This document shows, piece after piece, positions 13,587 to 16,220 of a stretch of 64,000 nt of DNA. Position numbers and translations under genes: made by a program. Each line of letters starts with the position of its first letter. Within the stretch, counting starts at the first letter, position 1. A model generated the notes under the pieces. It did no database searches. It was not told the DNA's origin and saw nothing but the letters and a program-made list of their open reading frames with translations. Source of the stretch: Bacteroidota bacterium (lineage in GTDB: Bacteria; Bacteroidota; Bacteroidia; UKL13-3); NCBI GenBank assembly GCA_027491355.1, contig JAIXWI010000015.1, forward strand, positions 34,588 to 98,587, read 5' to 3'.

Positions 13587-13619
13587 TTTCGATTGTTATA
13601 TTCGCACAAAATAAATGTT

Positions 13620-13760
13620 ATGGCTACTACCAGATTAAAAAGAAAAGACAGAAGAAATAAAGTAACCTCTGTATTGCGTAAGAACCGCATTAAAGTGAAC
13701 ACTCAACTTGTTAAGATCAAATCTCCTAACAAAGAACAAACTGTCATTATTGAAGACTAA
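13620..13760 (+). CDS. unannotated small ORF, 46 aa, highly basic (hypothetical)
   Basis: ATG at 13620. Translation is MATTRLKRKDRRNKVTSVLRKNRIKVNTQLVKIKSPNKEQTVIIED, ending in TAA at 13758-13760. It is below the ORF-track length cutoff and lies immediately before the terminator at 13785-13818. Confidence 0.25.
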   Translation: MATTRLKRKDRRNKVTSVLRKNRIKVNTQLVKIKSPNKEQTVIIED

Positions 13761-13818: not shown

Positions 13819-13819
13819 G

Positions 13820-13903
13820 TGCCGTGAAGGAGACTCGAACTCCTATACCCTTGCGAGTACCACCCCCTCAAGATGGCGTGTCTACCAATTTCACCACCAC
13901 GGC
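13820..13903 (-). tRNA. tRNA-Leu (anticodon GAG)
   Basis: The reverse complement folds as a cloverleaf: GCCGTGGTGGTGAAATTGGTAGACACGCCATCTTGAGGGGGTGGTACTCGCAAGGGTATAGGAGTTCGAGTCTCCTTCACGGCA. It has a 7-bp acceptor stem, 3-bp D stem, anticodon loop TTGAGGG (anticodon GAG), a long variable arm, a GGAGTTCGAGTCTCC T-arm and discriminator A. No CCA is encoded. Confidence 0.85.
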
Positions 13904-15041: not shown

Positions 15042-15503
15042 TTATTTAAACAGTGAGCGTAATTTTTGCTCGCGGTATTCAAATATTTGTTTCACCTGAT
15101 TGTCTACAAATAACCAATGCAATAAAGGAGCTAGAAAATAGCCCTTAGATTGATACAAAATTGTATCAGTCATTCTTACACCTCCCTCAACTACCTCAAA
15201 CTTATGGGTATGAATCCATGTTGTATAAGGGCCAGATAGCTGCTTATCGGTGAACTCAAATGGCGGATTCCAGGAGCAAATTTCTGTTTTCCATCTCATA
15301 GGAATGAAACCTAACCTGATTTTATAATCAATCAATGCCCCTTTTTTTAAATGAATGGGCAGCGGTGTTAAAATGTTAAAATTTAAAGAGGGTGGAGTGA
15401 TTTCGTTTAAATTTTCAGCCTTACTAAAAAAATCAAATACTTTTTCCAAGGAGTGGGGAATGAAAGTAGTATAGGTCAATTGTTTTTCAAATTTCATATG
15501 CAT
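15042..15503 (-). CDS. SRPBCC (Bet v1/START/polyketide-cyclase-like) domain protein
   Basis: The track ORF is 15042..15587. I prefer the start MHMKFEKQLTYTTFIPHSLEKVFDFFSKAENLNEITPP, which is SRPBCC-like and ~153 aa. This choice leaves the ACATTTGTT motif cluster in the intergenic region. Confidence 0.5.
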   Translation of the reverse strand: MHMKFEKQLTYTTFIPHSLEKVFDFFSKAENLNEITPPSLNFNILTPLPIHLKKGALIDYKIRLGFIPMRWKTEICSWNPPFEFTDKQLSGPYTTWIHTHKFEVVEGGVRMTDTILYQSKGYFLAPLLHWLFVDNQVKQIFEYREQKLRSLFK

Positions 15504-15705
15504 AGTAACAAGTAACTGTTTGTTTTGTTTCTGACAAATTGACATTAATTTGTTATTTAAACAAATGTAAAGTTGTAGATGATACACCTAGAAATATGTT
15601 CATATACAACAGATTACCAATGAATTATAAATAGTTTTTTGATGCATTTATTAACCCCAATCACTTTACATTTGTTTATACTGTATTTAACATTTGTTTA
15701 CAATG

Positions 15706-15741
15706 AAAACATTTGTTAAGTTTGGACTTAACAAATGTTTT
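15706..15741. promoter_or_regulatory. 36-bp perfect palindrome (candidate operator), 15 nt upstream of the HTH gene start
   Basis: aaaacatttgttaag-tttgga-cttaacaaatgtttt. At least four further ACATTTGTT/AACAAATGT copies occur at 15560, 15668, 15690 and 15709. Confidence 0.4.
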
Positions 15742-15755
15742 AACTCACTGATAAC

Positions 15756-16220
15756 ATGAATACTAGCGATACAATCAACCAAAGGGTATTGAAAGTGATG
15801 GCGCTCAAGCAGCTGAGTAGGTCAGCTTTTGTTGCAATTTTAGAAACTTCACTACCTGTGCTTACGCACATCAGTACTGGAAGGAATAAGCCTGGTTTGG
15901 AGTTGATCCAAAAACTGATAGAAAAATTCCCTGATGTATCGCCAGATTGGTTATTAACTGGCAGAGGATCAATGCATAGAGAACTGCACGTTTTGCCATC
16001 ACTGGAAACTGAATTAAATCAACTCAATTCTTTAAAAGCAGAAATAAAAACTCAAATAAAAGCCATTTCACAAATTGAGCAATACCATAGGATATTGCTC
16101 AAGGAAATTAATTATCTTTCTGAATTACAAATCATTATAAACAACAATAACCAAGTCTCCAACCAGCACCTTCAAGATTTAGAAAACATTCAATTGTCCA
16201 TCAAGCAAAAAATGAAGTAA
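15756..16220 (+). CDS. XRE-type helix-turn-helix regulator with C-terminal coiled coil
   Basis: 154 aa. The N-terminal region ends in ...VSPDWLLTGRGSM, the Bacteroidota HTH_3/HTH_19 ending. The C-terminal half is Q/L/E-rich heptad-like sequence. Confidence 0.55.
   Translation: MNTSDTINQRVLKVMALKQLSRSAFVAILETSLPVLTHISTGRNKPGLELIQKLIEKFPDVSPDWLLTGRGSMHRELHVLPSLETELNQLNSLKAEIKTQIKAISQIEQYHRILLKEINYLSELQIIINNNNQVSNQHLQDLENIQLSIKQKMK

Follow-up and report, generated by a model that had tools for sequence, protein, structure and literature searches.

A 252-nt gap in the 64-kb stretch of Bacteroidota DNA analysed here (the window) separates a minus-strand SRPBCC/START-like gene from a divergent, plus-strand gene for a 154-aa helix-turn-helix (HTH) protein and holds five near-palindromic boxes. 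These are real and strongly conserved, in their enrichment, spacing, and position as well as in being inherited together with the HTH gene. We consider it probable that the five boxes form a multipartite autoregulatory operator of the adjacent XRE-type HTH protein, which in the window lineage would also control the SRPBCC gene. Autoregulation is the better supported half of this reading, while control of the SRPBCC gene would hold only where that gene is the neighbor. That the HTH protein is the binder we infer from the co-occurrence of gene and boxes alone. A putative multi-site operator had been suggested by a first-pass annotation of the same DNA, and that suggestion gains support from 8-mer enrichment, from helically phased box positions, from the retention of the array with the HTH gene, and from remote homologues.

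Boxes in the intergenic gap

The repeated unit is a near-palindromic box, T-W-W-ACA-WW-TGT-W-W-A, and the five window copies collapse to a single form, W-AAACA-WW-TGT-W-AA, with a core (ACAWWTGT) that mismatches its own reverse complement at the central two bases only. Exact copies of ACATTTGTT occur in the gap at 15560(-), 15668(+), 15690(+), 15709(+), and 15730(-), i.e., five rather than the "at least six" first counted, the additional candidates (15534-15555) being degenerate, with at least two mismatches to ACATTTGTT. The reported clustering beside the HTH gene is real: ACAWWTGT occurs five times in the 252-nt gap and as nine singletons in the other 63.7 kb (Poisson P of at least five in the gap, 4.6e-10), and the 64-kb window holds eight exact matches to ACATTTGTT against 3.0 expected, with a maximum of 7 in 100 shuffles.

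Distal box S1 (15558..15573, TAAACAAATGTAAAGT, core 15561-15568) is centered 61 nt from the ATG of the SRPBCC gene (15042..15503, minus strand, 153 aa). The other four boxes occupy what we call slots A to D relative to the ATG of the HTH gene (15756..16220, plus strand), namely S2 in slot A (15663..15678, ACTTTACATTTGTTTA, core 15668-15675, center at -84), S3 in slot B (15687..15700, TTAACATTTGTTTA, core 15690-15697, center at -62), S4 in slot C (15706..15721, AAAACATTTGTTAAGT, core 15709-15716, center at -43), and S5 in slot D (15726..15741, ACTTAACAAATGTTTT, core 15731-15738, center at -21). Centre-to-centre spacings of the five boxes are 107, 22, 19, and 22 bp.

S4 and S5 are the left and right arms of a perfect inverted repeat. 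The 36-bp perfect palindrome that had been described here does exist at that length, but it consists of 16-nt arms (15706-15721 and 15726-15741) around a 4-nt centre, not of a 15-N6-15 arrangement, and it ends 14 nt, not 15 nt, before the ATG (15756). Viewed against the orthologues, this palindrome amounts to the slot-C and slot-D boxes inverted relative to each other, their flanks being complementary by happenstance in the window lineage. A second perfect 16-nt inverted repeat, missed at the time, is formed by S1 and S2 (15558-15573 / 15663-15678, TAAACAAATGTAAAGT / ACTTTACATTTGTTTA), whose arms are 89 nt apart. In relatives at 70-75% (L002:~636-652, and L004), the distal box reads ACTTTACA(C/G)TTGTTTAAG, the reverse complement of which agrees with the window (15558-15574, TTAAACAAATGTAAAGT) at 16 of 17 bases; the box appears to have been inverted in place, the near-palindromic site having undergone inversion or conversion on a small, local scale, and this change is why the perfect S1/S2 repeat is found in the window only. 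A phase-variable invertible promoter, with the 16-nt repeats flanking an 89-bp segment, was rejected, since the arms are two of the putative operator boxes, no recombinase gene lies nearby, and the orthologues are without the extended repeat.

Conservation and co-inheritance of the array

A scan of species-representative genomes yielded 52 loci, nearly all titled Bacteroidota metagenome-assembled genomes and many bearing lake or pond isolate names. For the comparison, the 300-nt upstream regions of 41 orthologous HTH genes were set against 697 kb of their own flanks, with no motif assumed. The resulting unbiased 8-mer ranking is topped by ACAAATGT/ACATTTGT, which is present in 41/41 regions and was observed 143 times against 0.74 expected. 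The first-pass annotation had considered that the motif might occur at a similar density genome-wide and so be just an AT-rich word. ACAWWTGT instead has a density of 16.9 per kb upstream of the 41 orthologues and 0.09 per kb in the flanks, a 190-fold difference, which makes the ACATTTGT boxes more than an AT-rich word.

The arrangement of the boxes is conserved as well. The distance between neighboring boxes in the orthologues is typically 19-23 bp, and minor peaks occur at 41 and 12 bp. Of 42 upstream regions (those of the 41 orthologues and of the window), 27 have their array anchored by an exact pair of boxes at a distance of 19-20 bp, which fill slots B and C. Among these 27 anchored arrays, a slot-A box precedes the pair in 24 and a slot-D box comes after it in 23, both at a distance of about 22 bp, giving an array spaced at 22, 19/20, and 22 bp at fixed distances from the ATG. 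In the commonest geometry the slot centers lie at about -96, -74, -54, and -32; the window and its nearest relative have them at -84, -62, -43, and -21. One to three extra boxes are found upstream of slot A, often 96-107 bp from it. A position matrix built from 202 boxes reads T(74%)-W-W-ACA-T/A-T/A-TGT-W-W-W. A right-anchored profile and a MAFFT alignment (14 leaders) confine conservation to the four boxes and to the ~14 nt that precede the ATG, the spacers being variable. That last stretch (-14 to -1; e.g., L022:9984-9997) is a conserved A/T-rich AtCAAtA.tTTAt in most orthologue leaders, replaced by CTGATAAC in the window clade; a role as translation-initiation context is possible, as is the presence of a degenerate fifth box (ACTATTGT) just upstream of it.

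No second box cluster was found anywhere in the 64-kb window, nor in the 10 kb flanking each of the 41 orthologues on either side; the other matches there are singletons, and a single cluster per locus is consistent with a local regulator. A metagenome-wide scan for three phased boxes (ACAAWTGT-N13-15-ACAWWTGT-N10-13-ACAWWTGT) returned at least 120 stretches, with 80 loci readable, of which 79 are unrelated 21-bp tandem repeats with different flanks; the lone true orthologous array (L109) stands beside an ORF of the HTH family. Swamped by these 21-bp repeats, the scan is uninformative on a regulon. Two of the contigs, L084 (1811-2007) and L085 (1021-1196), carry about ten tandem 21-bp repeats of gaaACAAATGTtttgatgact, iteron-like and with box flanks that resemble the operator box, and no ORF of the HTH family was detected on either contig.

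The genes around the array are also kept together. In the contigs of nine among the ~20 close homologues of the HTH protein, the order reads arginine decarboxylase, a small ORF, aldose epimerase, SRPBCC (-), a gap of ~260-275 nt, HTH (+), and M48 and M13 peptidases (-), and this synteny of housekeeping neighbors is retained in more than 25 species-level genomes. In view of the conserved chromosomal synteny, plasmid or phage iterons and a replication origin were set aside, and a prophage CI/Cro immunity switch was likewise set aside, the neighbors being housekeeping genes in conserved synteny. Several smaller features of this neighborhood were noted. At 15520-15541, 20-40 nt upstream of the SRPBCC start, an element TTTTGTTTCTGACA(A/G)TTTG(A/G)C is kept in the window, L002, and L004 amid a diverged spacer and might belong to the leader or promoter of that gene. 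In some relatives (L005:1262-1992, L006:1606-2291, L007, and L009:1632-2288), two small genes of ~100 aa and 117-134 aa, with no Pfam match and absent from the window, immediately follow the SRPBCC gene and seem to share an operon with it. In the window, the arginine decarboxylase gene is closely followed by a very basic 55-aa ORF (13593-13760, plus strand, MLYSHKINVMATTRLKRKDRRNKV...), at the position where a 45-46-aa gene is called in orthologous contigs, and a tRNA-Leu (GAG) gene (13819-13903, minus strand) separates this small ORF from the gene for aldose epimerase.

The SRPBCC gene is the divergent neighbor in 27 of 42 loci, and in 20 of these 27 a box lies 49-100 nt from its start codon. 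The array is still found upstream of the HTH gene where the usual SRPBCC gene is missing or replaced, e.g., next to a same-strand aldose epimerase gene (L028), a DUF1456 gene (L049), or a different, same-strand SRPBCC-like gene (L043). Remote homologues (e.g., from Bacteroidales and Bacteroidota bacterium records) have in common the HTH domain and its SH(I/V)xSGRNKPG helix only, with different C-termini and genomic contexts, and TTTACAnnTGTAAA-type boxes lie directly upstream in 9 of 10 of them. Because the boxes travel with the HTH gene across 41 genomes and these remote homologues, a protein that recognizes its own boxes would be the simplest explanation.

The HTH protein, the operator model, and competing readings

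On the predicted structure, the 154-aa protein is a divergent XRE/Cro-type HTH joined to a long helix. The AlphaFold2 model (built from a 19-sequence alignment; mean pLDDT 82) has a five-helix domain (residues 7-68; helices 7-17, 22-29, 33-37, 45-57, and 63-68) at moderate pLDDT (61-81 across the N-terminal domain), and residues 84-153 form one uninterrupted 70-residue helix with pLDDT ~95, presumed to be a coiled-coil oligomerisation module. In a Foldseek search of the PDB, the N-terminal domain matches P22 c2, 434 Cro/repressor, SinR, P2 C, TP901-1 CI, and DdrO best, and also HigA and C proteins, with probabilities of 0.99-1.0 and target TM-scores of 0.6-0.75, yet with weak E-values of 0.03-0.2. 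AlphaFold2 and Foldseek together give the five-helix bundle with an HTH from helices 2 and 3 that defines XRE/Cro-C1 domains, and the HTH plus long helix described in the first-pass annotation is what the protein models as; the SRPBCC assignment of the divergent gene also stands, though as a weak Polyketide_cyc-type match below the Pfam cut-off, accompanied by a weak match to the N-terminal domain of 3oh8.

At the sequence level, no significant Pfam or NCBIfam assignment was found for the window protein, the sole match, PG_1098_N, being sub-threshold, and a profile search against PDB sequences returned XRE and coiled-coil matches only, all non-significant (E 0.05-0.9). Homologues found through the N-terminal domain do exceed the HTH_3 cut-off of 23 (P0025, 25.2 bits; P0029, 26.3; P0032, 39.4; L058, 37.4; and L055, 30.9), so HTH_3 membership of the window protein would be transitive only, through these homologues. 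Across 19 orthologues that are 42-75% identical overall, the recognition region SLPVLTHISTGRNKPGLE / SLPVLTHIS(S/T)GRNKPGLE is (near-)invariant. An exhaustive phmmer search with residues 1-78, which superseded a word-indexed protein search with the N-terminal domain alone (one match), returned 5,307 50%-identity clusters at E <= 1e-3 and 175 at E <= 1e-10. Four proteins of 500-670 aa (P0023, P0026, P0040, and P0055) carry 4-6 tandem copies of the same HTH domain per chain, six HTH_3 stretches in the case of P0055, and such single-chain proteins might read phased arrays of similar boxes.

In the operator model that we favor, the protein would dimerise, or form higher oligomers, through its 70-residue C-terminal helix, and each dimer would read one near-palindromic box, TTWACA-WW-TGTWAA. 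Spacings of 22, 19, and 22 bp are about two helical turns each, so all four proximal boxes would share one face of the DNA and would be bound cooperatively. The proximal boxes probably cover the promoter and 5' leader of the regulator gene, which would result in negative autoregulation, while the fifth box, set about ten turns (107 bp) further upstream and with the SRPBCC start codon ~60 nt away, would extend the same control to the divergent gene, with looping between distal box and proximal array also possible. In Bacteroidota, the -7 element of sigma-A promoters reads TAnnTTTG and spans -12 to -5 (PMC9723704), a consensus that TACATTTG fits. The minus strand of S1 is ACTTTACATTTGTTTA and includes TACATTTG facing the SRPBCC gene, and S2 includes TACATTTG facing the HTH gene as a candidate -7 element; since both boxes contain TAnnTTTG, a bound protein would probably occlude the -7 elements directly. 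Sequence inspection revealed no -33 element (TTG/TTTG) at a suitable spacing, 17-23 nt upstream of S1 and S2, and because neither candidate promoter has a convincing one, the promoter positions given here are putative. Slot C carries TAnnTTTG facing the HTH gene in 17 of 27 orthologues and has TT at its centre in 24 of 27, and the slot-C box of the window is without the TA of the -7 consensus.

These matches allow for a more elaborate, and in our view unlikely, reading, in which the operator box would have evolved to coincide with the sigma-A -7 element (TTTACATTTGTA contains TAnnTTTG), such that the regulator mimics or competes for -7 boxes. As the regulator has no ligand-binding domain, its signal would in that case come from elsewhere, either from the divergent SRPBCC ligand-binding protein acting as an anti-repressor-like sensor partner, or from unfolding of the 70-residue coiled coil with conditions such as temperature, as in TlpA; the tandem proteins of the same subfamily, with their 4-6 HTH domains, would read similar phased arrays as single polypeptides.

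It is quite unlikely that the boxes are simply stacked sigma-A promoter elements, i.e., tandem or divergent promoters without a dedicated repressor, even though TACATTTG fits the -7 consensus (PMC9723704), S1 and S2 carry it toward their respective genes, and slot C does so toward the HTH gene in 17 of 27 orthologues. It is the palindrome ACAWWTGT that is conserved, including the C of ACA and the final T, which are invariant and not demanded by the -7 consensus, while A is found at the first central position in 38 of 202 boxes and at the second in 19 of 202, so that a minority are without TTTG. Furthermore, the boxes have either orientation and are also found downstream of every plausible start site, and a generic -7 element would be common elsewhere, yet the flanks hold 0.09 boxes per kb despite their many promoters.

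Very unlikely, too, is that the boxes are operators of another regulator encoded elsewhere, e.g., a winged-helix repressor of the BlaI/MecI/CopY type, with the HTH gene merely a target. The box core TACAnnTGTA is identical to the published "cop box" core TACANNTGTA of that family (PMC7253601), and about half of the box flanks in the position matrix read TACA / TGTA. However, the refined CopY operator RNYKACANNTGTMRNY (PMC7253601) is unmatched, in that its core ACANNTGT fits but its flanks do not: S2 is CTTTACATTTGTTTAT, with CTTT before ACA, S4 is GAAAACATTTGTTAAG, and the flanks of the 202 boxes are W-rich without an R/Y pattern. Moreover, the boxes travel with the HTH gene in 41 genomes and in remote homologues from unrelated contexts, no other box cluster (e.g., at a blaI-blaR1-type promoter) was found in the 697 kb of flanks, and the adjacent regulator is XRE-like and the adjacent peptidase M48, not M56/BlaR1.

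It is highly improbable that the 36-bp palindrome works at the RNA level rather than as a DNA site, as a 5' leader hairpin through which translation or stability of the HTH mRNA would be controlled. The window leader does fold to an 18-bp stem (-19 kcal/mol; z = -3.8 vs shuffles), but the RNAalifold consensus of 14 orthologous leaders is a weak -4.6 kcal/mol with an unfavourable covariation term (+0.22) and pairs box cores only, the arm extensions that perfect the window stem are not complementary in orthologues, boxes also lie far upstream and outside any likely HTH transcript, and there is no Rfam match. Finally, a chance pile-up of an AT-rich word in an AT-rich spacer, as a genome of 35% G+C and the absence of window-wide enrichment of the 10-mer with one mismatch (30 vs 26.7 expected) might have suggested, is excluded by the cluster probability (P ~5e-10) and by a 190-fold enrichment with conserved position in 41 genomes.

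Relation to known regulatory systems

Transcription factors of Bacteroidota outside gut Bacteroides are poorly characterised, and literature on the box sequence and on XRE/coiled-coil regulators in Bacteroidetes yielded no description of this HTH family or motif. The present analysis supplies a specific DNA motif (TTWACAWWTGTWAA) and an operator architecture for an unannotated HTH family, and the predicted unit of repressor and operator, being compact, conserved, and self-contained, might be of use as a genetic part for this phylum, whose promoters are unusual.

Lambdoid and temperate-phage repressors of the CI/Cro type (P22 c2, 434 repressor, TP901-1 CI, and P2 C), the best structural matches, share the XRE/Cro five-helix fold and likewise have several near-palindromic sites within one divergent intergenic region, together with autoregulation, which is predicted here. 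Such systems combine cooperative binding with looping between separated operators, and by analogy the conserved distal box at 96-107 bp would permit CI/Cro-like looping. Unlike them, our locus is not in a prophage and lies in conserved chromosomal synteny, the protein has a single long helix instead of an S24 peptidase or CI-type C-terminal domain, and four equally phased proximal sites replace the OR1-3 layout. The box is also shorter, with half-sites 2 bp apart and half-site centres ~8 bp apart, tighter than in classical lambda/434-type operators, which speaks against the operator model. A precedent for such geometry is the MqsA antitoxin, an XRE-type HTH dimer that reads a short palindrome with half-sites ~2 bp apart and autoregulates from two palindromes in its own promoter, which makes tight half-site spacing feasible for an XRE fold, whereas the locus described here has no toxin partner or zinc-binding N-terminal domain, a different half-site sequence, and five sites instead of two.

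Small XRE-family regulators such as SinR of Bacillus subtilis, C.AhdI, and C.EcoT38IS are also among the fold matches. SinR has a C-terminal helical oligomerisation module, and SinR and the C proteins bind adjacent repeated boxes cooperatively, the C proteins upstream of their own gene. The fold alone is held in common, with no sequence relationship; box sequence and spacing differ, the phylum here is Bacteroidota, and neither a SinI-like antagonist gene nor restriction-modification genes are found near the window locus. Operators of BlaI/MecI/CopY (PMC7253601) share the inner palindrome ACA-NN-TGT with the boxes here, in many cases flanked by T/A, and a promoter often has at least two boxes. 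In contrast, those repressors are winged-helix proteins where ours is modelled as XRE-type, their 16-base CopY consensus is unmatched, and no BlaR1- or CopA-type partner is adjacent. Taken by analogy, the locus, although its protein family is unstudied, would resemble an autoregulatory switch of the CI/Cro, SinR, or C-protein type, i.e., one of a familiar kind and mechanistically unsurprising.
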